The notes under the pieces: generated by a model
Database searches by the model: none
What the model saw: the letters and a program-made list of their open reading frames with translations, nothing else
Told to the model about the DNA's origin: nothing
Program-made: the position numbers and the translations under genes
Virus record (IMG/VR): IMGVR_UViG_3300035703_002708
Reading direction: 5' to 3' (one strand)
DNA: 64,000 nt
Source: a virus
Taxonomy: Duplodnaviria > Caudoviricetes
Shown: in pieces, positions 25,997 to 60,407 of the stretch
Numbering within the stretch: the stretch's first letter is position 1
How the letters are laid out: the number at the start of each line of letters is the position of its first letter

Positions 25997-26668
25997 ATGA
26001 AAACACTTAATAAAACAATCAGAAAAAATCTTTTGGAGACAAAAGATATAAAAAAAAGTTTGTTAGTAGAACAAAGAATAATACGAGGAAGATACAATTT
26101 TTTATTGGAATCGTTTCGCACTTTAGAGAAGATAAGTATCGATAAGATATTTTTCATAACACTCAACGAATCCAAAAAATTGAGAGAGTTAAATTTGGAT
26201 AAAAAAATGATTTTGAAAGAGGAGGAATCCTTCTTTTCGTCATTATTTTCTATATTTGGTTCAGGTATATTTCCTTCTCTTAAAGAGTATGGTGCCAAAT
26301 GGATAATAGAAAGAACCTTCGGTGAGGATGCTGCTAAATCAATGATGGCACAAACTGTTATTGCTGCATTTGGTAACTTGGATTGGGAATCAATCACAAA
26401 ACTTTTTACAGATTGTTCTTTTACATCTAAATGGTTAGTTGAAACAATTATAGAAGGATTTGTAAGAAAATATCAAGAAAAATCAGGTGCCACTGGAGTT
26501 TTTGCCGACACTGTAAGAAATGGAATTGTTGAGGCGATAGGAAGTAGCGAAGTTATTGATGCCTTGTCAAATAAACTTATGGGGTTTGTTTGTAATATGA
26601 TTGGTGGGTTGAAACCAAAAATGGAAGACGCTTATTCGGCAATCAAACAAAAGGTTGTTGCCAATTAA
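25997..26668 (+). CDS. Hypothetical protein
   Basis: 223 aa; leader rich in LLE/LVE/LNE. Confidence 0.7.
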   Translation: MKTLNKTIRKNLLETKDIKKSLLVEQRIIRGRYNFLLESFRTLEKISIDKIFFITLNESKKLRELNLDKKMILKEEESFFSSLFSIFGSGIFPSLKEYGAKWIIERTFGEDAAKSMMAQTVIAAFGNLDWESITKLFTDCSFTSKWLVETIIEGFVRKYQEKSGATGVFADTVRNGIVEAIGSSEVIDALSNKLMGFVCNMIGGLKPKMEDAYSAIKQKVVAN

Positions 26669-26747: not shown

Positions 26748-26770
26748 TTTCGGACTCTCTTTTGTTTTTT
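26748..26770. terminator. Bidirectional intrinsic terminator
   Basis: aaaagagagt-tttcgg-actctcttt between convergent genes. Confidence 0.8.
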
Positions 26771-29354
26771 ACCTCAACAAGTTGACAATACCTTTTTGTT
26801 CGTGGTATTGTTGTTTCACATCTCTATATACTATTTCATAATAATACACACCTGTAGGAACCTCTTTACCCCCATATTTACCATCCCAACTCATAGTAAC
26901 ATCATAAGACCTATATAATACTTCATTCCACCTATTATATATAACCATATAAAACTCCTCGATACGAGATGAAGCTACGGCAAAAAACTCATTATTGAAG
27001 TCCCCATTTGGTGTGAATGTGTTTGGAACATATAAAACTGATAACGGATAAATCAATACACAGTTTTCAGCGGAATCGACACAAGTAGGAATACCTGTTG
27101 TATAATAAGCCTTTGTTTCTAACTTAATACAATAATTTCCTGGCCCCAAATATGTATGTGATGGGTTGTCAGTCTGAGATGAGTCTCCATCACCGAAATC
27201 CCAAATATAAGATTGACCATCCTGCGATAAATTAAAAAAATCAAATGTAGGTTTTAATATATCTGTTATATTTCCACCCAATGTTGTAAATGACGCTGTC
27301 GGTGTTTTATTTATAATGATGTGATTTGGTTTTATAAGTGAGTCCACACAACCCTTATCTGATGTTGCAATTACTTTTAATGTAAAGACCCCTTCATTAT
27401 CATAACAATTTGTGAAACTTGTTTGAGTAATCCAATTTGGTTCTCCGATACTCCACTGATATGTATAATTTATTTGAGGATTAAGTATATCAAAATCAAT
27501 ACATTTAGGATGACAACCAGTTACGTCACTTTCAGTAAAATTTGGGTCAGGTAATGAATTTACGGTAATACCCTTCTGAAATGTCTGTTGACATCCATTA
27601 GCGTCGGTCAAGGTTGCAATATAAACTCCTGAGGCTGGTGGAATTACGTTGGAGTTATTGTTGTATGTTGTTGCGTCAAAAGGATTTGTCCAAACAATAT
27701 TATATGGTTGAATCGCATTTTGTTCAGATACAAATAAATTGGCTGGATACCCAAAACAAACTTCTTCTAACAATTGACCTTGTAATATAATATTATTAGG
27801 TTGACCAATATTGATACCCAAAGTAATATCACATGAGTTATCGTCTGTTACGGTGACTTGATAATACCCAGCAGTCACGTTTGTAAGATTTTGTGTGTTA
27901 TTTGGTGGCGGTATGTTCCATAAAAAAGAATAAGGTTGAGTTCCCCCATTTAAATCGATAGTTACAGTTCCATCTGAATACCCAAAACAAGTAGGTTCGG
28001 TCATAGATATTGTTCCACCCAAAGGTTGAGCAGGGCCCAAAACAAATATGTTTGGAACAATGTGTTCACACCCTTCATCATCGGTAATAAGTGCTGAGTA
28101 AGCGTTTGCTGGTAGATTATCGAAAAACCCTGTGTTATTTACAACACCATTTAACTCAAAAAGATAAGGTGGGGTTCCACCATTAGCAACAACCGTTATT
28201 GTCCCATCGTTGTCTCCAAAACATAACAAATTTGAGACAACAGGAGGAGTGTTTGTGATATTAGTTGGTTCTGAAATAATAACATTATGATTGTACGTAC
28301 ATCCATTATCATCTTCAACTATAATAAGATGATTTCCTGCCGGCATATTGTTATAAACACCAGTTGGTTGAGATACACCATTTAAAGTATATGTGTAAGG
28401 AATTTGTCCACCGGCAGAAGTAATCTCAAATGAACCATTTGATTCACCAAAACATACATTATCTACCAAATTTATTGTGTTATTAACTACAGGTGTATTT
28501 TCTCCAACAACAACATTTAATACGTTTGAATTGCATGCCTCATCATCGGTACAAGTAACTACGTAAGGACCTGGTGATAAATTTGTAACAGGAAAATTAA
28601 CAGGATTACCATCTAAAAAGAATTGGTATGGTGCAGTTCCTTGATTTACACTTACATCTATTTCTCCATCATTAAATCCACTACAAGTGGCATCTGTAAC
28701 TGATACCAAACTAATTACAGGGGGCGTAAGACAACCTAAAACTACGGTATTTGGTGATAACTGAAATTGATAAAATCCATTACATCCATTTGTCCCCCAA
28801 CTTCCTGCAAAACCATCACTAACAGGAGATACTTGCATCGAAAGTGATGCTCCTGCCGTATTACCCACTGTTGCCTCAAAACAAAAAGTCCAAGGACCTG
28901 TTCCAAAATCCCCCCAATCATCTGAACTTTGCCCATCGGTATTTAAATCAAAGAAAAAACCAGGACCAAATTGATTTCCGGCACCTCCAGCGGATGTAGG
29001 ATTACCGTTAAATGGGTTTGCTATCCATAACCACTGTCCTCCTGAACCATTACCACCTTGATTTGGTGGGTAAGTCGTAGGTGTAAGTGTTGTTAAATCC
29101 CAACCTGGTCCTACTGTTATATCAAAACCTTCTAACCAATTAGTTCCGATACCTGTGTTCCAATTGTTGAAGGTTACACAAAATTCTACTACTTGACCTG
29201 GTTCATAGCCACCCCCCGCAGGAAGAGGATTAACAACAACACTTTGGGTTCCCATACAATCGTTTTGTGAAAACCCAATAGTTGATAAAATTAAAAATAA
29301 AGATACAAATAAACTTTTTATTTGATTCCCATAGACTCTTGAAATTCTTTCCAT
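26769..29354 (-). CDS. T9SS type-B CTD (gliding-motility-associated CTD) surface protein with SprB-like repeats and PKD domain
   Basis: Signal peptide ending GFS|Q; about four D(A/V/P)TC.G..DG.I.....GGT.PY repeats; PKD YIWDFGDG..NPSHTY; LYVPNTFTPNGD.NN..F..IYNRW..WDG..PTGVYYY..KG.VNLLR. Confidence 0.9.
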   Translation of the reverse strand: MERISRVYGNQIKSLFVSLFLILSTIGFSQNDCMGTQSVVVNPLPAGGGYEPGQVVEFCVTFNNWNTGIGTNWLEGFDITVGPGWDLTTLTPTTYPPNQGGNGSGGQWLWIANPFNGNPTSAGGAGNQFGPGFFFDLNTDGQSSDDWGDFGTGPWTFCFEATVGNTAGASLSMQVSPVSDGFAGSWGTNGCNGFYQFQLSPNTVVLGCLTPPVISLVSVTDATCSGFNDGEIDVSVNQGTAPYQFFLDGNPVNFPVTNLSPGPYVVTCTDDEACNSNVLNVVVGENTPVVNNTINLVDNVCFGESNGSFEITSAGGQIPYTYTLNGVSQPTGVYNNMPAGNHLIIVEDDNGCTYNHNVIISEPTNITNTPPVVSNLLCFGDNDGTITVVANGGTPPYLFELNGVVNNTGFFDNLPANAYSALITDDEGCEHIVPNIFVLGPAQPLGGTISMTEPTCFGYSDGTVTIDLNGGTQPYSFLWNIPPPNNTQNLTNVTAGYYQVTVTDDNSCDITLGINIGQPNNIILQGQLLEEVCFGYPANLFVSEQNAIQPYNIVWTNPFDATTYNNNSNVIPPASGVYIATLTDANGCQQTFQKGITVNSLPDPNFTESDVTGCHPKCIDFDILNPQINYTYQWSIGEPNWITQTSFTNCYDNEGVFTLKVIATSDKGCVDSLIKPNHIIINKTPTASFTTLGGNITDILKPTFDFFNLSQDGQSYIWDFGDGDSSQTDNPSHTYLGPGNYCIKLETKAYYTTGIPTCVDSAENCVLIYPLSVLYVPNTFTPNGDFNNEFFAVASSRIEEFYMVIYNRWNEVLYRSYDVTMSWDGKYGGKEVPTGVYYYEIVYRDVKQQYHEQKGIVNLLR

Positions 29355-29815
29355 AATGTTTCTACTGAATTGTGAAATATCTCCGAAAACAAAGATGGTT
29401 CATAAGGTTTTTTCCTTAATGTCATTCCTGCTTCGTGTGGAGTTTTATCACCTTTTTTTCTATTACAGTTTCCGCAGCATGTAACCAAGTTAGTCCATCT
29501 ATTTGAACCTCCTCTTGATTTGGGTAATACGTGGTCAATCGTTAAATTTTTATTTAAACCACAATACACACACTGAAAACCGTCTCGTTTATAAATTCTT
29601 GCCCGATTAACTTTTAAATTCTTAACTCTGTATTTAACATAGTTTAATAATCTAATAATTAATGGACGAGCAAATTTAAATGAACCAGCATCAATCGGTT
29701 TTTCACCTTGTTTCAAAATCTCAGCCTTACCTTTATTAACAAGGTTAAATCCTCTAATAAGTGAGGTCACATTAAGAGGGCTGTAATCGGCATTCAAAAC
29801 TAATACTTTTTCCAT
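29318..29815 (-). CDS. HNH endonuclease (McrA-like)
   Basis: VLVLNADYSPL, RDGFQCVYCG, LTIDHVLPKSRGG..WTNLVTCCGNCN..KGD. Confidence 0.9.
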   Translation of the reverse strand: MEKVLVLNADYSPLNVTSLIRGFNLVNKGKAEILKQGEKPIDAGSFKFARPLIIRLLNYVKYRVKNLKVNRARIYKRDGFQCVYCGLNKNLTIDHVLPKSRGGSNRWTNLVTCCGNCNRKKGDKTPHEAGMTLRKKPYEPSLFSEIFHNSVETLWKEFQESMGIK

Positions 29816-36037: not shown

Positions 36038-36350
36038 AATTTTAATTTTGGGTTTGGTTGTAAGTTTGGGTCTTTGTGTAAAAACAAAGGCTCAAACTTT
36101 TCGCTATTCAAACAAACCTAAAAACGGACCTATAATGTTGGTGGGGGGTATTACTTTAATTACCGCCTCGGTATTGGAAAATAATGCTCAAGGGGATTGG
36201 GTATATAGTTATTCACCGAAAACAAACTCATTCACTAAAGAATATGTAAGACCAAACATTTTCAAAAATACACCTGTCAATATAATTTTTGGAGTTGGTG
36301 TTACTTTAACCGCGACAGGATTAATTTCTTCGTTGATGTCAATCAAGTAA
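36024..36350 (+). CDS. Secreted/membrane protein
   Basis: Signal ending KTKA|Q plus two hydrophobic helices. Confidence 0.65.
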   Translation: MKNFRILILGLVVSLGLCVKTKAQTFRYSNKPKNGPIMLVGGITLITASVLENNAQGDWVYSYSPKTNSFTKEYVRPNIFKNTPVNIIFGVGVTLTATGLISSLMSIK

Positions 36351-37178
36351 TTTTTCGTTGATGTCGTAAAACCTACCTGTCTCAACCCACCTCAAAACTT
36401 GATAATTTGTTCCGGTCGCACTAAACCTACTCGGTTCAAAATCCTCAACTTTATTTATAAAACATTTATCCCAATTTTGTTTAGGAATTGAACTGGTTGC
36501 AATATCTTCAGAACTATATTTTCTTTCCATCGCAAATAACACAGGAAATTCCGATGTAAATTTTATGTCATCAACCTCATTCATCTGTGATAAGAATCCT
36601 TCAATAACAGATTCCAAATTTAAGTCATAAGCAATATAAGTGGTAACGAGTATTTCAGGAACCTCTTGAATATCCTCAACCTCACCATCTCCATCACATC
36701 TATGACAATTGTATTCTCCATCACCACCACAATTATCACATCCTAAATATCCCTCACCATCACAATACTCGCATTCTTCTTGTTCGGTATTTCCCTCATC
36801 ATCTTCTACATCAACTTTTCCATCACCACCACATTCATTACAACTTTCACTACCACTACCTCCACAGTAATCACAACTTTCGGTACCACCACCACCGCAA
36901 TAACCACACTCTACCATACCAGGTTCTTTACCGAAACAAATCATATCAAATGTGTAAAGGTTATTATTAATTGACCAATCAACTGTTTTTTTCTCAACAT
37001 TTCTTAACACCGCATCCAAATAAAAAGTTAATTTTATTGTTACTTCCAAAGGAAAATTTTGTGTAAATTGTTGGAAGGTTTTATTTGTTTTAATATAAAT
37101 GAAAAGTTGATTTAAATTCGTATAAGAACCCTCAGGTATCAATCTTGATAATCTTTTGGCGATGTTGTATAAATCCAT
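36339..37178 (-). CDS. Protein with six DnaJ-type CxxCxGxG zinc-finger repeats, no J-domain
   Basis: CGYCGGGG, CDYCGGSG, CNECGGDG, CEYCDGEG, CDNCGGDG, CHRCDGDG. Confidence 0.75.
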   Translation of the reverse strand: MDLYNIAKRLSRLIPEGSYTNLNQLFIYIKTNKTFQQFTQNFPLEVTIKLTFYLDAVLRNVEKKTVDWSINNNLYTFDMICFGKEPGMVECGYCGGGGTESCDYCGGSGSESCNECGGDGKVDVEDDEGNTEQEECEYCDGEGYLGCDNCGGDGEYNCHRCDGDGEVEDIQEVPEILVTTYIAYDLNLESVIEGFLSQMNEVDDIKFTSEFPVLFAMERKYSSEDIATSSIPKQNWDKCFINKVEDFEPSRFSATGTNYQVLRWVETGRFYDINEKLLD

Positions 37179-38429: not shown

Positions 38430-39128
38430 ATAATTCAGAAAGTTCTTTAAAGTATAAGTTACTGAAACAGTCTAGGTCCGTAGGGCTACTGTTGTATGTG
38501 AGGAAAGTGACTACGGGACTCCTTCGCATTTAAAGTGTAAGTGAAACATATTACCGCAGCGGTTATAGTAACAAAAGTAATTCAGAAAAGAGGTCTAGTG
38601 TGAACCTGACTAAATAGTATGACTTCGGTCATCGTTTTTGCGAGTCTGTAGCACGTTCTGAATTTTTTACGGTATGGCGGGGTAGACTGGAGAAGGCACC
38701 AGCTGAGTCTCATAAGCTCAACCACGCAGGTTCGATTCCTGCTCCCGCAACTAGTGACCCGTTTACGGTGGAATCGGATGAAGCCACCTAATTTTTCGGG
38801 ATGACGAAAAAAAACAAAAAAAAGAATGTGTCCGGGGGAGTTTTGTTTAATATTTAGGCTCTTGTTATGTGTTTCACACCCCTCACCCGTGAAATCAGAA
38901 AAAAAAGACCACCTTTTATAGTGTGTGCGTAGATGTGATAACCACACCTTTCGTTTGAGGTTCATCAAAACGAATAAAAAATGGGCTTAGTCACCCATTT
39001 AACACATCCGTCGAGTGGTCGAACGATTCGAGTTAATTGCTCACTACAATTAAACTTGGGTTTATTGGAAACCTAACCACAAAACCAATAGCCAAATAAG
39101 GGTTATCACTTCGGTGGTTACCCTTTTT
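38430..39128 (+). ncRNA. Putative long structured non-coding transcript with embedded tRNA
   Basis: TAACTTTG at 38415-38422; boxA-like GTTCTTTAA at 38442; more than ten GC-enriched hairpins; no credible ORF; UUCG-capped terminator at about 39098-39130. Confidence 0.5.
38676..38750 (+). tRNA. Atypical initiator-like tRNA (CAT)
   Basis: GGCGGGG/TCCCGCA with 1:72 G-A mismatch; TGAGT-CTCATAA-GCTCA; GCAGG-TTCGATT-CCTGC; shifted D-stem CTGG/CCAG. Confidence 0.85.
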
Positions 39129-39154
39129 TTATTTTATATAAATTGTAAGAAACA

Positions 39155-39190
39155 AAAAAACCCCATTCCGAAAAGGAATGAGGTTTCAGA
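39155..39190 (-). terminator. Terminator after tmRNA
   Basis: aaaaaaaccccattcc-gaaaa-ggaatgaggttt. Confidence 0.7.
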
Positions 39191-39561
39191 TGGTGGAGAT
39201 GCGGGGTGCTGCCCCCCGGTCTTGCTCACTTTGGTAATTAAGGACTACGTAAATAGGTCAACATTAGTTCTTAATGTTCCGAAATATTGATTTTCTTACT
39301 CAGAAAACCACAAACGAGTTTTGTTTCTTTTAGGATAGAAACCACACCCTACCAGTACTTCTGTTCCGAGGTTATATGTACGCCGACCCGAAGTAGTTTC
39401 GCCTTAGGCTACTGCTACAGTTTCAGAAGTACGAACAAGTCCTACAGCTGAAAGTTTGTTGATAACGTTTCCGTCTAATTGTTAAGTCAGTTTTACAAGG
39501 TTAACTCAGCCTCGTTACGCCCTTAATTAGCAACCGTGCCAATCGATGCTATGTCATCCCC
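39191..39561 (-). ncRNA. ssrA: tmRNA
   Basis: 5' GGGGATG pairs with 3' CATCTCC-ACCA (G3.U70); T-arm CGGGG-GGCAGCA-CCCCG; tag ORF 39472-39404 after UAGAC context encodes (A)GNVINKLSAVGLVRTSETVAVA*. Confidence 0.93.
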
Positions 39562-39565
39562 ATTA

Positions 39566-39596
39566 TGTTAAAGAACTTCTTTCTTCTACAAATATA
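39566..39596 (-). promoter_or_regulatory. tmRNA promoter TATATTTG plus boxA-like GTTCTTTAACA
   Basis: Plus strand caaatata at 39589-39596 and tgttaaagaac at 39566-39576. Confidence 0.6.
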
Positions 39597-39648
39597 CGAA
39601 CCTTTTTGGAAAAACCAAAAAGAATAAATATTTATCAATAAAAAATTT

Positions 39649-40983
39649 ATGACAAGTGAAGACCTCGATGAAGGAAGGAATGTTATTATCGAAAACGATG
39701 ATTACCTTTTCATGGAAATATTAAATGCCGAAACTGCAAGATACTATGGTAAAGATGATATTGCTTACCTTTGGGGAAGAAAATATAGAGAGGGTCATTT
39801 ATATTATTTGATTGATAAAAAATTCAGGGGAGATTCAATTTGGATTCATATTCCTCGTATGAGTTCTATAGAAATAGAAACCTTCGACGAGGAAGTTCTT
39901 ACTTTATCTGACCTATTGAGAAGACATTCATTTATTGAAAAATTCATTATGGATAAAGTCAATCCATTTGATATGAGCACTTATTATGCTTTGAAAGCGA
40001 TTGCTCAAGGGGTTCCACCTTTAAGTGATTGGTCAATGCAAAATGTTGATGACCTTATTAGTAATTTCAAATATATCAAAGGAAATCCAAGAAATTCTAT
40101 TGTAACTTTAAGATTTGATAATAATGAGGAATATTTTAGAACATTCGATGTTAGTGATGATACTGTTTGGTTTCTGAATAGAATTTTTAACTCTTATGAA
40201 GGTGGCTATGAATTTGTTGATTACTCTGACAATTATCAATGGACCGATGGTTACATTCTTACTTACAATTTGAATGACGAAAATAAAGAAAAAGTTAATG
40301 AAATATTAAAAGTATTAAAACCTGGTACCACTCTAACAGATAATGACCACGATAATGCGGAGTTAACTAAAATACTTGACAATTTCTACCCTGAAATTGG
40401 TGATGATTTAACTACTGAATATGCTCATTTAGAAAACCAAGCAAGAAACGAAAAAGCGAAGGAAGAAATAACTGATGAATTTTGTAACATATACGAAAAA
40501 TTTAATATATTCGTGAGAAGAGGTTGTTTTTGGGAATATACAACTCCTGTTTGGAATTTAGTTAGGTTATACGAATCAAAACAATTATTCAATACAGATT
40601 TATTGGGACTAATCTCTGCTATAGGTCATACATTAAGTGTGACCGATTGGTATGAATATATGTATGAAATTTATGGTGATAATTTTGATGACGAACAATT
40701 TAACAGAGAAGCCGCAAGGACCTTGGATAAAGTCATAGAAAAGTTAGAAGAACAAAATTTGGATAAAGTAAAAAAGGTTTACAATGAAATTTCCAAAAAA
40801 TTCAAGTTTGAAAGATGGTATGATTTTCCGGTTGACCCCAAGAAAAGTTTTTATATGAGAAAAATAGATTTGGAAACAGGAAAATTGGATGTTAATTTGA
40901 GAGGCGTCGGTATCAACAGTTACCGAACTTTGATGGAACTCGAGGATTTTTATAACCTGATTTATAATTATTCTTTGTTTTAA
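39649..40983 (+). CDS. Hypothetical acidic protein
   Basis: 444 aa; TATTTAT at 39629-39635. Confidence 0.75.
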   Translation: MTSEDLDEGRNVIIENDDYLFMEILNAETARYYGKDDIAYLWGRKYREGHLYYLIDKKFRGDSIWIHIPRMSSIEIETFDEEVLTLSDLLRRHSFIEKFIMDKVNPFDMSTYYALKAIAQGVPPLSDWSMQNVDDLISNFKYIKGNPRNSIVTLRFDNNEEYFRTFDVSDDTVWFLNRIFNSYEGGYEFVDYSDNYQWTDGYILTYNLNDENKEKVNEILKVLKPGTTLTDNDHDNAELTKILDNFYPEIGDDLTTEYAHLENQARNEKAKEEITDEFCNIYEKFNIFVRRGCFWEYTTPVWNLVRLYESKQLFNTDLLGLISAIGHTLSVTDWYEYMYEIYGDNFDDEQFNREAARTLDKVIEKLEEQNLDKVKKVYNEISKKFKFERWYDFPVDPKKSFYMRKIDLETGKLDVNLRGVGINSYRTLMELEDFYNLIYNYSLF

Positions 40984-41019
40984 TTTTGTTTTGTTAAAAA
41001 CTTTTGATAGATTTGTCCT

Positions 41020-41853
41020 ATGGAAAGAAATTATCAATTACTGAAGGACGTTTTGTCCGTACCATCTAAAACCTACAATGAGGAACTGATGGTTGAATTC
41101 ATCTCAAATTGGCTTACCGAAAATAACATTGACCACGAAGTTGATGAATATATGAATGTATATGCCACCAAAACAACGGGTCCTGTTCCTGATAATTTTT
41201 ATTTTCCTTGTGTTGTATCTCACACTGATACTGTTCACAACATCGATACAATAAATGTGGTCGAAGAACAAAAACCGAATGCTCAAGGTGAAATCAAACT
41301 TTCCCTTAAAGCATACAACGATTTAGGTAATCCTACGGGAATTGGTGGTGATGATAAGTGTGGTATTTACGCTTGTTTAGAATTACTAAAGGAGTTGCCA
41401 TTTTTGAAAGCGGCGTTTTTCGTTTCAGAAGAAACTGGTTGTCACGGGTCTAGAAAAGCGGACAGGTCTTTTTTCTCTGATGTGGGATATGCGATTCAAT
41501 TCGATGCCCCTGAAAATTGGATGGTAACTGAAAGATGTTGGGGTACGACTTTGTTTGACCGTAGGTCTGATTTTTTCAAGCACTGTGATAATGTGTTGAC
41601 TGAATCTTTTCCTGATAAATTACAATATTTTTCACATCCATACACTGACGTTTACGCACTAAAGGAATCATTTGACTTTTCTTGTATAAACATTTCAATC
41701 GGGTATTATGATTACCACACCAAAAACGAATATGTCGTCGTAGAAGATGTTTATAACGGAATTGATGTAGGAAAGAAAATGATTGAAAAATTAGGTTATT
41801 CTAAATACAAATTCAAAACTGAAAAACCTGATAAGTTTTATTCGGTGTTTTAG
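41020..41853 (+). CDS. M20/M28-family zinc peptidase-like protein
   Basis: SHTDTVH, GIGGDDKCG, FFVSEETG, QFD, YYDYHT; TAGATTTG at 41008-41015. Confidence 0.8.
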   Translation: MERNYQLLKDVLSVPSKTYNEELMVEFISNWLTENNIDHEVDEYMNVYATKTTGPVPDNFYFPCVVSHTDTVHNIDTINVVEEQKPNAQGEIKLSLKAYNDLGNPTGIGGDDKCGIYACLELLKELPFLKAAFFVSEETGCHGSRKADRSFFSDVGYAIQFDAPENWMVTERCWGTTLFDRRSDFFKHCDNVLTESFPDKLQYFSHPYTDVYALKESFDFSCINISIGYYDYHTKNEYVVVEDVYNGIDVGKKMIEKLGYSKYKFKTEKPDKFYSVF

Positions 41854-41897
41854 TTTTAGTTAAATAAGTTTTTTTATTAAGTTTTATATTTATCAAT

Positions 41898-42446
41898 ATG
41901 AAACTGATAAATTTACTGACTCGGATAATATCTGAGCAACCCGCTTTTCAAAAAAGACTACTTATAAAAGGTCTAGTTTTAAGTGAAATTTTCGATGGTA
42001 ATATATTCGAATTATATACAGGTCAGCATGGGGTAGACCGAGCCATAAGAGAAGAAAATACATCTGAAGTTACCAAATATGACATTATTGATAAATTTAC
42101 AAGGGCAATACCTGAATTGAATAAAAGATTTTTCGGTATGATAAGAAATGCTAAAAGTCCAATTATTGATGGTAAATATTTTTTCAGGGACTTCAAATCA
42201 GGTGGTCCGAGAGAAGAAAAATCTCCAAGGTTTGTAGTTGTAGAACAAAAAGATGATTTTTTTCAAATGGTACTTATGGTTAAGAACTACGACAAAAATA
42301 GTAATTACATATCGTTTGAGATAGTCACTATTTTGAAAAGTGGTGAACCCCTATATAATTTATATAATCCTAAACATCACGTTCTCAAGTATAATATTTT
42401 TTTAGAACATGTTGGTGTTTCAGAAATAATTCATATATTTGTGTAA
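41898..42446 (+). CDS. Hypothetical protein with LLTRIISE|Q leader
   Basis: 182 aa; TATTTAT at 41887-41893 is 4 nt before ATG. Confidence 0.7.
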   Translation: MKLINLLTRIISEQPAFQKRLLIKGLVLSEIFDGNIFELYTGQHGVDRAIREENTSEVTKYDIIDKFTRAIPELNKRFFGMIRNAKSPIIDGKYFFRDFKSGGPREEKSPRFVVVEQKDDFFQMVLMVKNYDKNSNYISFEIVTILKSGEPLYNLYNPKHHVLKYNIFLEHVGVSEIIHIFV

Positions 42447-42595
42447 GAAAATCCGAAGGTCGTTGAGGATTAAAATATAAAGCGACTGGGTGGGGAAAGT
42501 TATGTGTCAGCTTCCACCGAGTAATAACACTTCTGAACCAAACAAAATTTGGTCAGGCAGAAAGGAAAAGGAGGTCATTCGACCTCCTTTTTTGA
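42446..42595 (+). ncRNA. Putative ~150 nt structured small RNA
   Basis: TATATTTG at 42434-42441; stems AATCC/GGATT, GGTGG/CCACC, CTGA.CCAAA/TTTGGTCAG; terminator aaaaggaggtc-attc-gacctcctttttt. Confidence 0.45.
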
Positions 42596-44614
42596 TTTAC
42601 CCTTCTTTGGTTTTTTATCTTCTGTAATTTTAACTTGTTCTTCTTCAACAGATATAGTATAGTTGTGGTCGGTGAGTAATTCACCTTTGAGGACTTCTTC
42701 TGAAATGTAATCTTCAATCTTGTCCTGAATCGCTCTTTTCAAAGGACGGGCACCATACATCTCGTCAAATCCAACTTTAGAAATCATATCAACAATTGAG
42801 TCGTCAAATTTGACGTTGTACTTAATTTTGGTCAATCTATCTGTCAACTTAATAAGTTCAATTTTAACAATTTCTTTTACGTGTTCTTCTTTCAAAGTGT
42901 TGAATACAATGATATCATCGATACGGTTCAAGAACTCAGGTGCAAAAAATTTCTGAAGTTCTTTTTTCAGAGTATCTCGTTTTTGTTCCTCAACGATATA
43001 ATCCTTTTTCTGAAAACCGATACCCGAACCAAATTCTTGGACTTTTTTAACACCAAGATTTGATGTCATAATAATCAAACAATTTTTGAAGTTAATTTTA
43101 CGACCCAAACTATCAGTTAGGTGTCCATCATCCAATACTTGAAGTAATGTTGAAAACACATCTTTATTTGCTTTTTCAATTTCGTCAAACAAAACAACTG
43201 AATATGGTTTATTTTTAACTTGTTCAGTGAGTTGTCCCCCCTCATCATAACCCACATATCCTGGAGGTGCCCCAATCAAACGAGACACGGTATGTTTTTC
43301 TTGATATTCGGACATATCAATTCTGATTAGTGAATCTTCACTACCAAAAATTTCTTTCGCCAATTGTTTTGCTAAATGTGTTTTACCAACACCTGTTGAA
43401 CCCAAGAAGATAAACGAACCAATTGGTCTATTAGGGTCTTTGATACCCAATCTATTTCTACGAATTGCTTTCGAGATTTTACTTACCGCTTCCGATTGAC
43501 CAATAACTTTTGATTCCAACATCGACTCCAAATTAATAAGAGATTTTGTGTCATCAACATTTAATTTACCAACAGGAATTTTGGTCATATTTGAAACAAC
43601 CTCATAAACAAGTTCGATTTGAACATCTTTTTTGTTGATATTCATTTCTTCTTCAAATCTTTGTTTTTCAGCATGGAGTCGGTTTAATACTTTTTTCTCC
43701 TTATCTCGTAATTCCGCCGCTTGTTCATAGTTTTGTCTTTTAACAACATCTATCTTCATTTGTTTTATATCAGAGGCCTCCTGTTTTAACTTTTCAATAG
43801 ACTCTGGCATTTTAACATCTACCTGACTTCTTGCACCTACTTCATCTATAATATCAAAAGCTTTGTCAGGAAACTCTCTATCTGTAATATATCTGTCTGC
43901 TAAATCAACACAAGTAATTAATACTTCATCCGAGAAAATTACTTTGTGATAATCCTCATATTTTGATTTGGAGTTTCTTAAAATTTGTAAAGTTTCATCT
44001 TTCGTTGCTGGGTCAACAATCACTTTTTGAAATCTGCGTTCAAGTGCTCCGTCTTTTTCAAAGTTTTTTCTATACTCATCTAATGTTGTCGCTCCAATAC
44101 ACTGAATTTCTCCTCTTGCAAGTGCGGGTTTGAATATGTTTGAAGCGTCTAAAGAACCTGAAGAATTACCAGCACCTACGATTGTATGGATTTCATCAAT
44201 AAAGACAATAATGTTTGGATGAGATTGTAATTCCTCGATTATCACTTTCATTCTTTCCTCAAACTGACCACGATATTTTGTTCCCGCAACAATCGATGTC
44301 ATATCAAGTAATACAATCCTTTTATCAACCAAATTTCTTGGACATTCACCTTGTTGGATTTTCATTGCCAATCCTTCAACAATTGCGGTTTTACCACAAC
44401 CTGGCTCACCAATAATAATTGGGTTATTTTTCTTTCTTCTTGATAGAATTTGAGCAATTCTCAATATTTCTTTATCTCTACCAATTACAGGGTCTAATTT
44501 ACCTTCTTCGGCATACTTAATCAAATCTTTTGAGAAGTTATCTAATACAGGTGTTCCTGTTTCACTTTCTATTTTCTTTTTGTGTGATGGTCCATCATCC
44601 ATTATCTCGTTCAT
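42575..44614 (-). CDS. clpC: ClpC-like AAA+ unfoldase lacking the N-terminal repeat domain
   Basis: GKLDPVIGR, GEPGCGKT, FIDEIH, UVR-like QNYEQAAELRD, GSTGVGKT, LFDEIEK, IGF loop, GARPLKR. Confidence 0.88.
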   Translation of the reverse strand: MNEIMDDGPSHKKKIESETGTPVLDNFSKDLIKYAEEGKLDPVIGRDKEILRIAQILSRRKKNNPIIIGEPGCGKTAIVEGLAMKIQQGECPRNLVDKRIVLLDMTSIVAGTKYRGQFEERMKVIIEELQSHPNIIVFIDEIHTIVGAGNSSGSLDASNIFKPALARGEIQCIGATTLDEYRKNFEKDGALERRFQKVIVDPATKDETLQILRNSKSKYEDYHKVIFSDEVLITCVDLADRYITDREFPDKAFDIIDEVGARSQVDVKMPESIEKLKQEASDIKQMKIDVVKRQNYEQAAELRDKEKKVLNRLHAEKQRFEEEMNINKKDVQIELVYEVVSNMTKIPVGKLNVDDTKSLINLESMLESKVIGQSEAVSKISKAIRRNRLGIKDPNRPIGSFIFLGSTGVGKTHLAKQLAKEIFGSEDSLIRIDMSEYQEKHTVSRLIGAPPGYVGYDEGGQLTEQVKNKPYSVVLFDEIEKANKDVFSTLLQVLDDGHLTDSLGRKINFKNCLIIMTSNLGVKKVQEFGSGIGFQKKDYIVEEQKRDTLKKELQKFFAPEFLNRIDDIIVFNTLKEEHVKEIVKIELIKLTDRLTKIKYNVKFDDSIVDMISKVGFDEMYGARPLKRAIQDKIEDYISEEVLKGELLTDHNYTISVEEEQVKITEDKKPKKGKSKKEVE

Positions 44615-44664
44615 AGTATTTAAATTTTGTAAAAATATAGGAATTGAATTTATAAATTCAACAG

Positions 44665-44736
44665 TGTCAGTTTGTCACACATAGTATGACATTTTGTCAG
44701 TTCATGTCAGTTTTTTTGGTTTGGCACAAAGTTGGC
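44665..44736 (+). promoter_or_regulatory. Sigma54-like -24/-12 promoter with TGTCA/TGACA operator repeats
   Basis: TGGCACAAAGTTGGC (GG 44723-24, N10, GC 44735-36); TGACA-TTT-TGTCA palindrome at 44687-44699; further TGTCA at 44665, 44673, 44705. Confidence 0.6.
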
Positions 44737-44774
44737 TCACCAAGTAAAAAATAAACTTATAAATTATAAAAACT

Positions 44775-45155
44775 ATGTTTAACACAATTTCTTTATTCAG
44801 TCCAACATTTGATGATTTAACAAAGGACTTTTTTGAATCAACGAGGAAGAATTATTATTCGACCGATTATGAAACCCACAAAACTGAGGATGGTATGTAT
44901 TATTTATTTGATGTACCAGGTTTTAACAAATCAAATCTAAAAGTTGAGGTGGAAGGTTCGAAACTTTTGATTGATGGTAAAAGAATTTATAAAACATCAA
45001 ATGGTGAAAGAACAAAGACATTCCAAAAAACTTATGAGTTGGGAAATAAAATTGACATCTCAAAACTTGAGGCAACAATCGAGGATGGAATTTTGACAAT
45101 CTTTATTCCTACTCCAAGTGAAAAGGAAACAAAGAAAAAAATCTCTCTTCTTTAA
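44775..45155 (+). CDS. Small heat-shock protein (Hsp20/alpha-crystallin)
   Basis: FDVPGFNKSNLKVEV..LLIDG..F.KTY.L..LEATIEDGILTIFIP. Confidence 0.88.
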   Translation: MFNTISLFSPTFDDLTKDFFESTRKNYYSTDYETHKTEDGMYYLFDVPGFNKSNLKVEVEGSKLLIDGKRIYKTSNGERTKTFQKTYELGNKIDISKLEATIEDGILTIFIPTPSEKETKKKISLL

Positions 45156-45972: not shown

Positions 45973-46740
45973 ATGACTATGTCCAAGAAAAAACATATAA
46001 ATGATTCCAACTTGTTGTTGGAAGCGAGATATCTTTTGGAGCAACCGGATTCCAAGATGCCAGGCCAAATAGAGAAATTTGGGTACAAACAAAATGATGC
46101 ATCTACTTTAGGACCTGCATTACAAAGACAAAAAGAATATTTGGAATCAATGGATACTCATACGTTACTAACGATAGGTAGCGTGGCAACCGCATTTATT
46201 CCAGTCGTCGGTCCATTAATAAGTGCGGGATTATCTCTTGCGGATGCTTCTATATATTTATCGGAAGGTGATAAAAAATCTGCAGGTTTATCTGCAATTT
46301 TTGCGGTTCTTCCTGGTTTAACGGGTGTTGTTGCTAAAATCCCTTTAATAAAAAATTTAGGTAGCAATGGTATGAAATTATTAGCCGACAAGATAATAAA
46401 AAATGGTGCCAAGGCTAAACTTACAAAACAGGAGTTGGGGGTTGTTAATAGTATTTCTCAAAATCAGAGTTTGATAACACAGGAACTTAACAATTATTCT
46501 AAAAATGTTGCATCGAAATATCTCAATAACACTAAAAACGCAAAATTGAAGTCTACTCTGTCAAGCATCGCTAAAGGTGGTTTGAAATTTAGTGGACAGG
46601 TTGCCGGTTACGGTTCTGTGGCTTATATTTACGATAAACTATATCAAGACGAACCTTCGAGTACAGATTTGGTTAAAAATTTGAGCACAGTAAAACCAAC
46701 AGCGGCTAGTTATCAGGCGGCAAAATCAATACAGTGGTAA
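45973..46740 (+). CDS. Protein with pre-toxin TG-like hydrophobic hairpin
   Basis: AFIPVVGPLISAGLSLADASIYLSEGDKKSAGLSAIFAVLPG. Confidence 0.55.
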   Translation: MTMSKKKHINDSNLLLEARYLLEQPDSKMPGQIEKFGYKQNDASTLGPALQRQKEYLESMDTHTLLTIGSVATAFIPVVGPLISAGLSLADASIYLSEGDKKSAGLSAIFAVLPGLTGVVAKIPLIKNLGSNGMKLLADKIIKNGAKAKLTKQELGVVNSISQNQSLITQELNNYSKNVASKYLNNTKNAKLKSTLSSIAKGGLKFSGQVAGYGSVAYIYDKLYQDEPSSTDLVKNLSTVKPTAASYQAAKSIQW

Positions 46741-46757
46741 GTTCAAAAGTAAAAGTT

Positions 46758-47000
46758 ATGGCAATCATCAAAGAAGAAATTAAAGGGACCAAAATAATTA
46801 ACGACATTCAGTCATCAAACATCAAACACACAGAGTATGATACTGAAACAAAATCGTTAGAAGTTATTTTTAATAATGACCTGAAATACATATATGAAGG
46901 AGTCCCTCATCAGGTTTATACACAATTCAGAATGTCTGAATCTCAAGGTAAATTTTTCAGTTCAAAAATATCCAAATCATACCCTTATAAAAAAGTCTGA
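46758..47000 (+). CDS. KTSC-domain protein
   Basis: SSNI...YD..T..LEV.F....Y.Y.GVP..Y..F..S.SQGKFF...I...Y. Confidence 0.85.
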   Translation: MAIIKEEIKGTKIINDIQSSNIKHTEYDTETKSLEVIFNNDLKYIYEGVPHQVYTQFRMSESQGKFFSSKISKSYPYKKV

Positions 47001-47018
47001 TTAACGGATATTTATAAT

Positions 47019-49019
47019 GTGATGGAAAACAATGGTATTTTAAAAAGTTTTGATTTACAGGATGATTTGAATCCAAAAATTTGGAAAAAAAACTCAAAAG
47101 GGTCCTATACATTATCACCAGAAGTTAGAGAAAAACTTTTGGAAATTGCATACGAATTTATTGAATCATTAAAAGTAGATGTAATAGTATCAGATGTTCA
47201 TCTTACTGGTTCACTCGTCAACTTTAATTGGTCTCAGTATTCGGATTTTGATTTACATATCATAGCTGATTTTAATCAGTTTCCAAAAAAAAGTTTACCT
47301 CTTTACGAAGAGTTATTTAAACTTAAAAAAACCATATTTAATTCTGAACAGAATATTAAAATATACGGATACGATGTCGAGGTCTTTGTTCAGGATGAAA
47401 ATGAAAAAGGTCATTCTGCAGGTATCTTTTCTTTAATTTCGAATGATTGGTTAGAAAAACCAAAAAAAGAAAAATTTGAGGTAAATAAAACGATTCTTAA
47501 AAAGAAAATAGACCAATGGACTGAAAAAATAGATAAGGTCCTTGAGTCGGCACAAGAGGAGAAAGATTTAGAAAAATCTAAAAAATTAGTTAGTAACCTT
47601 AAAGAAAAACTCAAGGATTATAGAAAAATTGGACTAGAAAAAGGAGGAGAGATGTCTTACGAAAACCTTGTATTCAAATACTTGAGAAGAAGTGGACATA
47701 TAGAAAAATTGTTCGACTTCAAAAAAGACAGATTGAATAAGGAACTTTCATTGAATGAGGTTACTACAACTATTGGTGGTACTTTTAAGACTGACCTTGA
47801 GAATGGTCCTAAAAATCATGGAGCAAGAGCGTTCGGTAATTGGCAATCTGATAATGCTTGGGATATTTTTTCACCTCCTGGTACTAATGTAAATTCTTAC
47901 ACTAATGGAACTGTTTCAAGAGTTTACGATACTGGTAAAAATTCAGGAAAGGTTTATGGTACTCAAGTAACAGTATCAGGTGAAAAGGGTTTTCCTGATA
48001 TTTTTTACACTCATTTAAAAAATGTCAATTTGAAAAAAGGAGACAAAGTCAAAGTTGGTGATTATATTGGTCAAATTTCTGAATGGATTGGACATAAAGG
48101 AATGGAACATGTTCATATTGGTCTACCTCGAGGTAACCATTTAAGAAGTTTATTAGTTAACACTGAGAAAATTTTTTCAGGAAAAGGACCTATAAATCAA
48201 CCAGGTTCTAATACAGAAACTGATAGTGGTTATATTGGTTCCTTATTGACACAAGCAGATAAGTCCAAGTTTCTAAAAGATTTTATGGAGTTGGCGAAAA
48301 ATGATGTCAATTACAAATATGACTTAAGTAATAAAGGAAGGATACAATATCAACCAGAAGTTGAGAAAATTCAGGTTGCGCTGAAGTTTTTAGGATATGA
48401 CTTACCAAAGTGGGGTATCGATGGGAAGTTCGGACCCGAAACTGAATCCGCGGTAAAAGAATTACAAAAAAAATATAATTTGGGTGAAACAGGTGTAGTT
48501 ACTAAAATAGTTTTACAATATCTTTTCGTTCTTATAATCCAAAATGGATTTGAGCAAGCCGACCTAAGTAAAATACTGTCCCTAAAAGACGAAGGTTTTA
48601 CTAGTCCAAGCGTGTCTAACGATAAAGAATTTTACGAACAAATTTTGAAAGGTATCAATGCACCAATTACGGACGGTAATCTTAAGTTCCTTTATGCATG
48701 GAGACAAGCAGAAGGTGGTAAGGCAACTAACAATCCTTTTAACACCACTTTAAATTTAAAAAAAGACAATCTAAAGTCTAACTATAACAGTGTTGGTGTA
48801 AAAAACTTTTCAAACTCATCGTATGGTGTTGAAGCAACAGTAAAAACATTATTGAATGGGTATTATGATTGTATTGTTGATGGTTTGCGAAACGATATAG
48901 GTGCGGAAAGAATTAGTAAAATGTGTATGAGTCAATTGGAAAAGTGGGGTACTGGAGGATTAGTTTATAAAGTATTACAAGGTGGGACTATAAAACCACC
49001 CCCTATTTATGAAGCATAA
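47019..49019 (+). CDS. Fusion: Pol-beta-type nucleotidyltransferase + M23 peptidase + PG-binding + lysozyme-like domain
   Basis: TGSLVNFNWSQYSDFDLH and DVE (NTase); NHG..AWD, YTHL, HVHIG (M23); IDGKFGPETESAVKELQ (PGBD); WRQAEGG..NNPFNT. Confidence 0.75.
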   Translation: MMENNGILKSFDLQDDLNPKIWKKNSKGSYTLSPEVREKLLEIAYEFIESLKVDVIVSDVHLTGSLVNFNWSQYSDFDLHIIADFNQFPKKSLPLYEELFKLKKTIFNSEQNIKIYGYDVEVFVQDENEKGHSAGIFSLISNDWLEKPKKEKFEVNKTILKKKIDQWTEKIDKVLESAQEEKDLEKSKKLVSNLKEKLKDYRKIGLEKGGEMSYENLVFKYLRRSGHIEKLFDFKKDRLNKELSLNEVTTTIGGTFKTDLENGPKNHGARAFGNWQSDNAWDIFSPPGTNVNSYTNGTVSRVYDTGKNSGKVYGTQVTVSGEKGFPDIFYTHLKNVNLKKGDKVKVGDYIGQISEWIGHKGMEHVHIGLPRGNHLRSLLVNTEKIFSGKGPINQPGSNTETDSGYIGSLLTQADKSKFLKDFMELAKNDVNYKYDLSNKGRIQYQPEVEKIQVALKFLGYDLPKWGIDGKFGPETESAVKELQKKYNLGETGVVTKIVLQYLFVLIIQNGFEQADLSKILSLKDEGFTSPSVSNDKEFYEQILKGINAPITDGNLKFLYAWRQAEGGKATNNPFNTTLNLKKDNLKSNYNSVGVKNFSNSSYGVEATVKTLLNGYYDCIVDGLRNDIGAERISKMCMSQLEKWGTGGLVYKVLQGGTIKPPPIYEA

Positions 49020-50436
49020 TATTATGAAATCAGATTTATTAATTTTAAAAGAGGTAAAATTAAATTCTCCTTTAGATGGGGAATTGAACGTTACTAGCCC
49101 ATTCGGAAAATGGAGAGGTACTTATCAGCATCATGGTGTCGATATAGGAACACCATCCGGTAGTCAACTAAAAAGTCCTGCTGATGGTATTATAACGGTC
49201 GCTCACACTAAACAAAATGCTTGTGGGGGTACAATTACTATTGACCACAAAAATGGATTCAAAAGTCGTTTTTGTCATTTGAAAAGGATTGATGTTACTG
49301 TTGGTGACAAAGTTACCGCAGGACAGACAATTGCATTAACAGGTGGTGGTGCAAATGACCCAGGAAAAGGAAGGTCAACAGGTCCGCATTTACATTTCGA
49401 ATTCTATGAAAATGGGAGATTGGTAGACCCTATGAATTTTATTGATAAAGTAATATCACCTGGCGATTTCAAAGATTCCGAAAAACAAAGTGATATTTCT
49501 AATGAATTAATAACTAAAGCACAAAAATCTGATTTTTTAAAGAAGTTAAAAGATTTGGCCGAAAAGAATATCACATTTAAAAATTTAAAAAGTGAGGGTT
49601 CCAAAATACCATATAGAAAGGAGGTAGAAAATATTCAAATTGCACTACAATTTTTGAAACATTCTTTACCTGTATGGGGTGTTGATGGTTTATTTGGTCC
49701 TGAAACTGCAAACGCTGTTAAAGGATTTCAAAAAAAAATGAACCTTAAAGACACAGGTGAGGTTGACTCTGAAACTATGAAATATTTATACGCCTCTTTG
49801 GTTAAAAATAATTTTGAGGATTCTGATTTGAGTAAAATTAATTTTACAGGAGGATATAATTCGAACTTGTTGGATGTATCACCAAATTCGGTTTCATCTG
49901 ATTTTGAAACTATGACTAAAATAATAATAGATAATTTTGAGGGTGGTTATTATAATCCTGCATGGCATTATAAACCCGCAATGGGTCGTTCTGGTGAAAC
50001 AATGTTTGGAATGGATAGAGTGCACGGTGCAGGGTTGTTTAAATCGGGACCAGGTAAAATGTTTTGGGAAATTATTGATAAGAACAAATCAAAAGAAGTT
50101 TGGAAACATTATTATACGGGTGGACCAATAAAAGATGATTTGATTAAGTTAGTCGCAATGATTATGGAGGAGGCTTATAATGTAAATTCTAACACGTATT
50201 TATCACCTACTGCTCGTAAAATAGTAAACTCAAATAATGGTTTGATGTTTCATTTTTTATACGCATGTTGGAACGGTCCAGGTTTTTTCAAAAGATTTGC
50301 TAACATAATAAATAAGGCGGTTGAGGACGGTATCGAATCTCCACAAAAACTTCTGAGTATTGCAATAAATTCAAGATTGGATGGAGGAGTAACAAGAAAA
50401 AGCGGAGAAAAAATGTTGAAAATATTCAAAGCATAA
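49009..50436 (+). CDS. Multidomain murein hydrolase: M23 + PG-binding + GH108-like lysozyme
   Basis: HHGVDI, FCHL, STGPHLHFE; VDGLFGPETANAVKGFQ; FEGGYYNP..GETMFG. Confidence 0.8.
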   Translation: MKHNIMKSDLLILKEVKLNSPLDGELNVTSPFGKWRGTYQHHGVDIGTPSGSQLKSPADGIITVAHTKQNACGGTITIDHKNGFKSRFCHLKRIDVTVGDKVTAGQTIALTGGGANDPGKGRSTGPHLHFEFYENGRLVDPMNFIDKVISPGDFKDSEKQSDISNELITKAQKSDFLKKLKDLAEKNITFKNLKSEGSKIPYRKEVENIQIALQFLKHSLPVWGVDGLFGPETANAVKGFQKKMNLKDTGEVDSETMKYLYASLVKNNFEDSDLSKINFTGGYNSNLLDVSPNSVSSDFETMTKIIIDNFEGGYYNPAWHYKPAMGRSGETMFGMDRVHGAGLFKSGPGKMFWEIIDKNKSKEVWKHYYTGGPIKDDLIKLVAMIMEEAYNVNSNTYLSPTARKIVNSNNGLMFHFLYACWNGPGFFKRFANIINKAVEDGIESPQKLLSIAINSRLDGGVTRKSGEKMLKIFKA

Positions 50437-57982: not shown

Positions 57983-58708
57983 ATGAAAATAGGTGTATTA
58001 AAATCAAGAGTCGAGAAATTACTTTCTGAATCATATGGAAAAGGAACTTTCAAAGAAGAAATTAAAAACTTCAATAGAAATGTTTTATCTAATAAAAACA
58101 TATCTAAATTATTTTTTCTTTATGATGAGTTATCAACAAATAAAGGTTATGACCAAAAATTGGCTGAAGATTTTGTTTTTGAATCAATCACTATGTTCGA
58201 AAACATTATAAATAAGACAGACAAAAGAGATTTGGAAAAACTTAAAAAGTGGGTTATTAGTGTTAATTCACATAACCAATACACCGACATAGATAACTTG
58301 TTTTACAACTCTGGTGATGTTCTACATTTAGAAAACAAAGTTAGAAGTAAGAAGATAATCGTTGAGGGTTTGAAAAAAACTCAAATTAACGAGAACAAAG
58401 AAACTATTCTTTTACCTTTGAGTTCTATGGTCAAGGTTGCAAATAAAACTATAGAAGAATTTATATCTAATCTAAACGAGTCAGAAAAGAAAGAACTTAA
58501 TTTATTACTAAAAGAGGATGAGTCAGTTTTAGTTGAGCAATTCCAAAATCTAAAAGACGAGGCGGTAGTTAAGTTAGTTGTTGTATTAGAAGGTGAACCT
58601 ACTGAATCGGTCAGAAATACAATTAATGAGACTATAGATAATATCAAATCCAAGAAATTTGACAGATTAGAGTATTTCAAGTTAAAGAATTTGGTCGATA
58701 ACTTATAA
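57983..58708 (+). CDS. Head-module hypothetical protein
   Basis: 241 aa between portal and protease; TATTTAT at 57959-57965. Confidence 0.7.
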   Translation: MKIGVLKSRVEKLLSESYGKGTFKEEIKNFNRNVLSNKNISKLFFLYDELSTNKGYDQKLAEDFVFESITMFENIINKTDKRDLEKLKKWVISVNSHNQYTDIDNLFYNSGDVLHLENKVRSKKIIVEGLKKTQINENKETILLPLSSMVKVANKTIEEFISNLNESEKKELNLLLKEDESVLVEQFQNLKDEAVVKLVVVLEGEPTESVRNTINETIDNIKSKKFDRLEYFKLKNLVDNL

Positions 58709-58777
58709 TTTTTTGACATTATGACAATCTTTATCTAACTTTTTTTCAGAAAAATAAACTCTGAAAAAAGTGAGAGA

Positions 58778-59230
58778 ATGAAGAAAGGGAAAACCGCTAA
58801 ATTAAGCGGGTTCAAATCGTCAAAAATTAGTTATGGAACAGTAGATTCAAAAAACTTAAAATCAATTTACATTAACATTCAAACTTGGGTTCAACCAAAA
58901 GACGATTATGACAATTGGACAAGAATAGTCCTAAACATGTCAAGAGCAATCAAACATGTTGTATTTAATTGTATCGATAACGAAATGTTTGACGAAAAAT
59001 TTATAGTCGACTTGGATTTAAGAACAAGTGGAATTCAATATAAAAAAAGGTCTTTTATGAATTTAGAAATCAATCTTTATTTATTAGAAGAAATGGATTT
59101 TAAATCCACAAAGTTAAAAAAATCAATAAAATCTATTGTAAGTTGTATACATTCTGACATATTCAGGGGTAACGAATATTTTGATTTTCATTTAAGTAAA
59201 AAGGACAAAACTGAACTTGTTGAGGTATAA
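58778..59230 (+). CDS. Hypothetical protein
   Basis: 150 aa ORF. Confidence 0.7.
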   Translation: MKKGKTAKLSGFKSSKISYGTVDSKNLKSIYINIQTWVQPKDDYDNWTRIVLNMSRAIKHVVFNCIDNEMFDEKFIVDLDLRTSGIQYKKRSFMNLEINLYLLEEMDFKSTKLKKSIKSIVSCIHSDIFRGNEYFDFHLSKKDKTELVEV

Positions 59231-59266
59231 ATATAAAGTTCAAAGTATTTATATAAAAATATCGAT

Positions 59267-59995: not shown

Positions 59996-60044
59996 TTCTT
60001 GATTTTATAAAATGTTTTAATGATATTTTATAAAAAATAAAATT

Positions 60045-60260
60045 ATGGACGAAAAATATTTCATCGCAAAACTTTACTATGAATTTCCTGATGAAGAAAC
60101 TGGTAAAGTAAAAAAAGTTAAAGAAGAAAAACTTGTAAAAGGTTATAGTCCCACAGATGTTGAGGCTAAGATTACAAAAAGGTATAGTGAATTGACTTGG
60201 GATTGGAGAATAACATCTATCGCTGAAAGCAAAATTGACGAGGTAATCGAAGTATTATAA
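60045..60260 (+). CDS. DUF4494-like small protein
   Basis: YFIAKL.YE..ETGKVKKVKEEKLV..S.TDVEAKI resembles the Bacteroidota DUF4494 pattern. Confidence 0.5.
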   Translation: MDEKYFIAKLYYEFPDEETGKVKKVKEEKLVKGYSPTDVEAKITKRYSELTWDWRITSIAESKIDEVIEVL

Positions 60261-60283
60261 ATTTTTTTCTTAAAAGACTTAAT

Positions 60284-60320
60284 GAAAAAGGGGACTCGAT
60301 AGGGTTCCCTTTTTTTATTT
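60284..60320 (+). terminator. Intrinsic terminator
   Basis: aaaaagggact..gttcccttttttt. Confidence 0.7.
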
Positions 60321-60407
60321 ATTTTATTTTTTTTAAATGAAAATTTGAGAAAATGTATTTTTTTACGTATGTGACAATATTTATATGAAAAAATATACAT
60401 TTATAAA

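Follow-up and report, generated by a model that had tools for sequence, protein, structure and literature searches.

The locus described here lies in a 64,000-nucleotide stretch of viral DNA (IMG/VR record IMGVR_UViG_3300035703_002708), referred to below as the window. Between positions 39,191 and 45,155 the window carries a transfer-messenger RNA (tmRNA) with a long tag frame, a conserved 444-amino acid (aa) protein, a metallopeptidase, a ClpC protein without its N-terminal repeat domain (termed headless) and, divergent from clpC, an hsp20 gene (Table 1). Four transcription units, judged by strand, were counted across the interval, which is not one operon. An earlier note, made from the sequence alone, had called the interval a protein-quality-control island, without listing the 444-aa gene or a sporadic 182-aa gene that also lies within it. 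Hsp20 and an upstream zinc-finger gene proved accessory, and the interval is therefore better described as a core locus that is conserved apart from one slot with interchangeable genes. Headless Clp matched at least 599 viral stretches, and all locus counts out of 80 refer to the best 80 of these. ClpP, smpB and Clp_N were sought in the window and in relatives, five of them complete.

The window comes from a large T4-like phage, with genes for terminase, portal, prohead protease and the major capsid protein at 54-64 kb (sequence inspection) and tRNAs at 30-39 kb. Complete relatives measured 291-321 kb. The bS21 gene was present in 4/4 complete relatives tested, a link between this group and the freshwater Bacteroidetes phages described in PMC9723584; a bS21 open reading frame (ORF) was not found at its usual site in the window (58700-60400), nor in a near-identical fragment (G047). 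The source is a ~300-kb freshwater Bacteroidota phage, probably kin of the bS21 phages.

Table 1. Features of the tmRNA-clpC locus and its immediate surroundings (window positions).
Feature	Position	Strand	Evidence and occurrence
CXXCXGXG zinc-finger protein, outside the module	36339..37178	-	Repeats below cut-off; 4/80 loci
Intrinsic terminator directly 3' of tmRNA	39157..39187	-	
tmRNA, one-piece, alanylatable tRNA-like domain	39191..39561	-	Rfam RF00023, 77 bits (cut-off 47), E 3.7e-28; alignment with 23 relatives
Tag reading frame, 22 codons + stop; begins GNV, ends VAVA	39404..39472	-	
Putative Bacteroidota-type -7 promoter element TAnnTTTG, upstream of tmRNA	39589..39596	-	
Conserved 444-aa protein between tmRNA and peptidase	39649..40983	+	70/80 loci; 558 homologues
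Single-domain M20/PepT-like co-catalytic metallopeptidase	41020..41853	+	77/80 loci; PHROG 4191
Sporadic 182-aa gene, outside the conserved module	41898..42446	+	1/80 loci; no family match
ClpC without N-terminal repeat domain, 679 aa, two intact AAA+ modules	42575..44614	-	
IGF ClpP-docking motif (predicted), aa 532-534	43013..43021	-	
UVR-type middle domain, aa 279-309; tip Y296, R303, D304 (= S. aureus F436, R443, D444)	43688..43780	-	22.2 bits (cut-off 21.5)
Array of TGACA/TGTCA half-sites in divergent clpC-hsp20 promoter	44656..44711	.	
Sigma54-like -24/-12 motif facing hsp20	44722..44736	+	
Hsp20 small heat-shock protein, alpha-crystallin domain, in swappable slot	44775..45155	+	Pfam HSP20, 55.9 bits

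The phage Clp could be aligned to Staphylococcus aureus ClpC from residue 155 onward, its start falling at approximately S. aureus residue 140, and a profile search gave no Clp_N match in it. A misannotated start or a frameshifted N-domain was ruled out: only 160 nt separate the clp and hsp20 starts, so that no N-domain can be hidden there, and the open frame upstream of clp was at most 74 codons in all 80 relatives, every one of which was headless (most proteins 670-690 aa). A stand-alone Clp_N, for which the earlier note had proposed a search and which it had named as counting against its reading, was found nowhere in the five complete relatives. Walker A and B motifs, pore loops and arginine fingers were conserved in 80/80 relatives, as was an [IVLM]GF loop with the same signature as Bacteroidota ClpC. 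The earlier note's description of the protein (a UVR middle domain, an IGF loop and no N-terminal repeat domain) was thus borne out in all three respects, and the docking on ClpP that it attributed to the loop is likely from the sequence. As a side observation, the lysine-rich C-terminal tail (42575-42620) and the acidic-then-basic N-terminal tail (44555-44614) of the protein were kept across relatives in character, not in sequence.

In the tree, phage ClpC branched with Bacteroidota ClpC, and ClpB stood apart; a scan of genome contigs gave mostly ClpB among the matches listed, and host ClpC sequences were gathered separately. The phage protein scored below the TIGR03346 (ClpB) cut-off and has a short middle domain (M-domain) and a ClpP loop, and so is not ClpB. 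Its scores of 727 bits to ClpC vs. 498 bits to ClpL, together with the loop, separate it from ClpL. By sequence, the protein is a ClpC-derived variant and not a canonical ClpC (class I Hsp100). Two phages of 630-640 kb (L163, L164; LR745206, LR756502) carried smpB and two or three clpP genes, along with a ClpC that had become headless independently. An approximately unbiased (AU) test rejected a single headless clade (p 0.006; quick tree, simpler model), which suggests that the head was lost at least twice.

At the positions equivalent to F436, R443 and D444 of S. aureus ClpC, an aromatic residue, Arg and Asp were kept in 80/80 relatives. S. aureus ClpC with the N-domain deleted (delta-N) binds ClpP and forms head-to-head ring dimers and rods without proteolysis, and the same delta-N protein with F436, R443 or D444 mutated degrades SsrA-tagged green fluorescent protein at full rate, N-domain removal being what opens activated ClpC to this substrate (PMC5699869, PMC12583610). 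Given this mutant behavior and the intact M-domain tip, loss of the head should make the protein more accessible to C-terminal tags and leave it under middle-domain control. The adaptor-independent unfoldase proposed by the earlier note is doubtful on this comparison, since the S. aureus delta-N form works only once the M-domain contacts are broken.

The tmRNA match was full length, with the G3.U alanyl pair present and the CCA end encoded, which confirmed the gene that the earlier note had placed here. ARAGORN did not detect a tmRNA at 39191-39561, and single-strand folding of the gene was unremarkable (z -1.6). Contigs from RNA libraries fell inside the gene in three studies, evidence of a kind that cannot prove transcription. 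The upstream element in Table 1 matches TAnnTTTG, the Bacteroidota -7 consensus, and is a putative promoter element. The T-loop (39201-39220, - strand) reads GGCAGCA and is not of the TTCGA type; it was similar in three relatives (L002, L077, L079) and canonical in most.

Tags were read by alignment, by which some wrong ARAGORN tag calls were corrected. Among 58 distinct Clp-linked phage tmRNAs, the tag was 21 or 22 codons long in every case, positions 11-12 were an invariant Gly and Leu, each spelled by several synonymous codons, and the terminal residue was Ala in 57/58. The tag frame was open in 58/58, and the other two frames were blocked in 53/58. Codon-position entropies were 0.93/0.36/1.19, with second positions the most conserved. 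As read from these alignments, the tag reading frame is under coding selection. All 13 Bacteroidota host tags sampled were 9 codons long, with an ending of the type (Y/F)A(L/M)AA, to which the phage tags do not belong. A second family of phage tags, of ~23-25 codons with an acidic-aromatic pattern ending AVAA, was seen on four fragments (L241, L269, L287, L262), and clp was not found on these fragments. A DNA pattern for the tmRNA also matched at several places in small phages; these matches lay within genes and were discarded as chance.

Wherever a locus was of sufficient length (47/47), the tmRNA and clp were 4.0-7.7 kb apart. Clp was also found in 21/24 large records of a tmRNA-anchored sample; the members of both sets are kin and not independent trials. 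Both genes were present in all five complete relatives checked. Sampling independent of Clp, by way of the neighboring nucleotidyltransferase, returned 5 close loci. In sister lineages clpP was located 16-30 kb from clp, beside homologues of the window genes at 25997-26668 and 29318-29815. No clpP match was obtained in the window, including this syntenic site, and among the complete relatives clpP was present in 2/5 and smpB in 1/5; the search for these two genes proposed by the earlier note thus had a negative result for clpP in the window and a mixed one among relatives. Because the syntenic site has no clpP, and 3/5 complete relatives lack the gene too, reliance on host ClpP, as the earlier note had supposed, is likely here, and the source phage probably uses both host ClpP and host SmpB. 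At the window site where sister phages have clpP, an 861-aa protein is encoded (26769-29354, - strand).

The slot divergent from clp was occupied by Hsp20 in 20 of the 80 loci, by a tandem-UVR protein in 28 and by DnaK in 1, and was empty in ~30. The Hsp20 of the window was called divergent by the earlier note and is recognized by its Pfam family; as a core member of the locus Hsp20 was rejected on its count. DnaK was observed in the slot divergent from headless clp in L058 and L361. The tandem-UVR protein (120-155 aa) has an aromatic N-terminal arm and two UVR motifs, was found only beside clp, and never occurred together with Hsp20 in these loci. Its repeats copy the motif of the M-domain tip, which makes it, from sequence and position, a candidate regulator of ClpC in sister phages. 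In complex prediction, the tandem-UVR protein and ClpC aa 20-345 (L075) scored 0.11 against a mark of 0.32, which is evidence neither way.

TGACA/TGTCA boxes were present in 15/19 Hsp20 loci, 25/28 tandem-UVR loci and 2/30 empty-slot loci. The sigma54-like motif was present in 18/19 Hsp20 loci (0.3 expected), 14/28 tandem-UVR loci and 2/30 empty-slot loci, counts that are somewhat optimistic as the pattern was tuned after the sequences had been viewed. A looser motif, TGG-N8-TTG, preceded 18/22 Bacteroidota clpB genes (0.6 expected; upstream regions L106-L162). Its position before clpB suggests a sigma54-type heat-shock control in Bacteroidota, to which the common promoter motif points; no description of such control was found in a literature search.

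Taken together, the locus may provide a tagging and unfolding route to ClpP that the phage itself runs and that is gated by the M-domain, a reading to which we give an even chance of being correct. The tmRNA, with host SmpB in most members, would free stalled ribosomes and append Ala plus the 21-22-residue phage tag, which ends in small hydrophobic residues. The headless ClpC, predicted to be an active ATPase, would dock through its IGF loop on a ClpP that is probably the host's in the source phage and phage-encoded in sister lineages. Lacking the N-domain, it should ignore phosphoarginine (pArg) and MecA-type inputs to that domain, and its pore, to judge from the S. aureus mutants, may directly accept degrons at the C-terminus, the phage tag among them. 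ClpC would not be permanently active: through the intact M-domain tip, rings should pair head-to-head, and activity would hence depend on an M-domain binder, on substrate or on a weak basal rate. In sister phages the tandem-UVR protein, as two M-domain mimics, is the candidate regulator; in the source phage the slot holds Hsp20, possibly as a stress-induced holdase. The peptidase, judged by its family, probably trims ClpP products. The tag-and-degrade route of the earlier note is in this form a plausible link between the genes.

Several results weigh against this reading. No activator was identified in the window, and the tandem-UVR protein was absent from 3/4 complete relatives. The 47/47 linkage reflects shared ancestry within a block that also holds the KTSC gene and two other conserved genes. 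In G053 a related 21-codon tag accompanies a full-length ClpC (and ClpP) that is sister to the headless clade; the long tag therefore preceded loss of the head, and strict co-evolution of the two was rejected. By sequence, the long tag goes with phage ClpC lineages, but it was not created by head loss and no obligate coupling exists. The tmRNA and clp of G068 are ~20 kb apart, and an Rfam tmRNA was not found in either 630-kb phage, where a divergent tmRNA could escape the model. The observations on G053, G068 and the 630-kb phages also favor an explanation in which the genes are neighbors and not partners: the tmRNA would boost ribosome rescue, its tag being read by host proteases or acting as a slow, protective one, ClpC would handle unrelated phage substrates (head, scaffold), and a conserved core block beside the head genes would alone keep them together. 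Consistent with this are the separate transcription units (strands, terminators), synteny extending to KTSC, a nucleotidyltransferase-hydrolase gene and a 465-aa gene, and other long tags on contigs on which no clp was found, though these contigs are fragments. The invariant G-L core and fixed length of the tag, unlike any sampled host tag, imply a specific reader, and both genes persist in all the complete relatives; mere neighborhood is thus possible but somewhat improbable. Were the tag's conserved N-terminal half read by the phage's own ClpC or by a phage adaptor (e.g. the 444-aa protein), with separate tandem-UVR proteins that mimic the middle domain switching the motor instead of the lost N-domain and host ClpP doing the cutting, the locus would hold a private, orthogonal degradation code, which we regard as rather doubtful.

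The interpretation of the earlier note, an adaptor-independent unfoldase taking over host ClpP to clear stalled products or host defense proteins, and understood here as constitutively active, is compatible with the missing N-domain, with the lack of any stand-alone Clp_N in five complete relatives and of a UVR partner in most complete relatives, and with mycobacterial ClpC1, which has low autonomous activity though its tip is intact (PMC9305358). It is unlikely in view of the invariant repressive M-domain residues and of the delta-N ClpC with an intact M-domain, which showed no proteolysis. A non-proteolytic use was also considered, in which the protein would act together with Hsp20 as a disaggregase in ring dimers like those of ClpL, or would serve as a sink, trapping host ClpP in inactive ClpC-ClpP rods and thereby sparing phage proteins. 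Engineered delta-N ClpC does assemble into ring dimers resembling ClpL and, with ClpP, into inactive rods (PMC12583610), and chaperones (Hsp20, DnaK) occur in the slot, behind a motif found also at host clpB. The GF loop is kept everywhere, though, sister phages have a clpP of their own that a ClpP sink would not need, the protein is nearer to ClpC than to ClpL, and three quarters of relatives have no Hsp20, all of which makes such a use unlikely.

Compared with the ClpC-ClpP systems of S. aureus and Bacillus subtilis, which act with MecA or McsA/McsB (PMC5699869, PMC12583610), the phage protein (aligned over aa 16-662) has the same two AAA+ modules, short UVR domain with an aromatic tip and R-D pair, and ClpP loop. 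It differs in being virus-encoded, in its short acidic-basic N-tail and basic C-tail, and in lacking the N-domain and with it the MecA, pArg or casein groove, and is thus a natural counterpart of the laboratory delta-N mutant. Bacteroidota ClpC was 53-58% identical to the phage protein, with the same loop and M-domain signatures and in one clade with it, but the host proteins are 830-880 aa long, with two Clp_N repeats in the single one scanned. In streptococci and Listeria, ClpL works alone as a disaggregase and is not known to partner with ClpP. It resembles the phage protein in having no Clp_N repeats and in the M-domain ring dimers expected of it; the phage protein has the ClpP loop and descends from Bacteroidota ClpC. 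SPO1 Gp53 (PMC6873191) is likewise a case of a phage redirecting ClpCP-type proteolysis, but Gp53 is an adaptor for host ClpC, whereas here the motor itself is phage-encoded.

With trans-translation (tmRNA-SmpB) and with known phage tmRNAs (Bacillus phage G, the mycobacteriophage Bxz1 group; PMC4131195, PMC12484599) the locus shares a one-piece tmRNA, an alanyl acceptor stem and a hydrophobic tag end. Bacillus phage G also has ClpP and ClpX (PMC4131195, PMC12484599). Here the tag is 21-22 codons long (vs. 9 in Bacteroidota and 13 in phage G) and does not end in L/M-A-A, the tmRNA is paired with ClpC, and smpB occurs only in some relatives. The bS21-encoding freshwater Bacteroidetes phages are alike in genome size and gene neighborhood; PMC9723584 lists Hsp20 and Clp proteases near bS21, with tmRNA mentioned nowhere in the paper and loss of the N-domain in neither of its two Clp passages. 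The combination of a tmRNA with a headless ClpC was not described in the literature searched, which left subscription journals mostly outside its coverage. A natural delta-N ClpC across hundreds of phage contigs, arrived at two or more times, would allow a direct test of ClpC regulation by the middle domain alone, and the long conserved tag makes it testable why phages carry a tmRNA. Should only the phage motor read the tag, the virus would own a circuit for both rescue and degradation, and the tag might serve as an orthogonal degron tool.

The peptidase bears out the M20/M28-like assignment of the earlier note at the level of clan MH: the metal and catalytic residues H68, D111, E137/E138, D162 and H233 were invariant and D112 nearly so, and the closest structures were PepT and Xaa-His dipeptidases. 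Its scores lay below the Pfam family cut-offs (M20, 20.0 vs. 24.6 bits; M42, 19.4 vs. 23.2 bits), and PepT-like is the best description. Four relatives (L051, L058, L360, L361) carried a longer peptidase (320-350 aa) on the clp strand, directly downstream of clp. The 444-aa protein gave a confident structure model (predicted local distance difference test, pLDDT, 91) and had no Pfam, PHROG or Atlas assignment. Searches with its whole-length model returned no Foldseek PDB match at E<=0.001, a best VIA Z of 5.3, and only uncharacterized phage proteins in BFVD. The zinc-finger protein, which the earlier note had called DnaJ-type, does have CXXCXGXG repeats, at sub-threshold scores, but no J-domain match was found in it; with its low count among relatives, DnaJ was rejected as a module member.

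KTSC and a nucleotidyltransferase-like domain flanked clp in nearly all relatives; in the window, 46734-50436 holds the KTSC gene, a nucleotidyltransferase-like domain fused to M23, peptidoglycan-binding and lysozyme-like parts, and a paralogous hydrolase. The gap at 42447-42574, between clp and the convergent 182-aa gene, is GC-richer. An ORF-free, structured region (38430-39130) surrounds an initiator-like tRNA-Met, and 38779-39093 was covered by one freshwater RNA-library contig.

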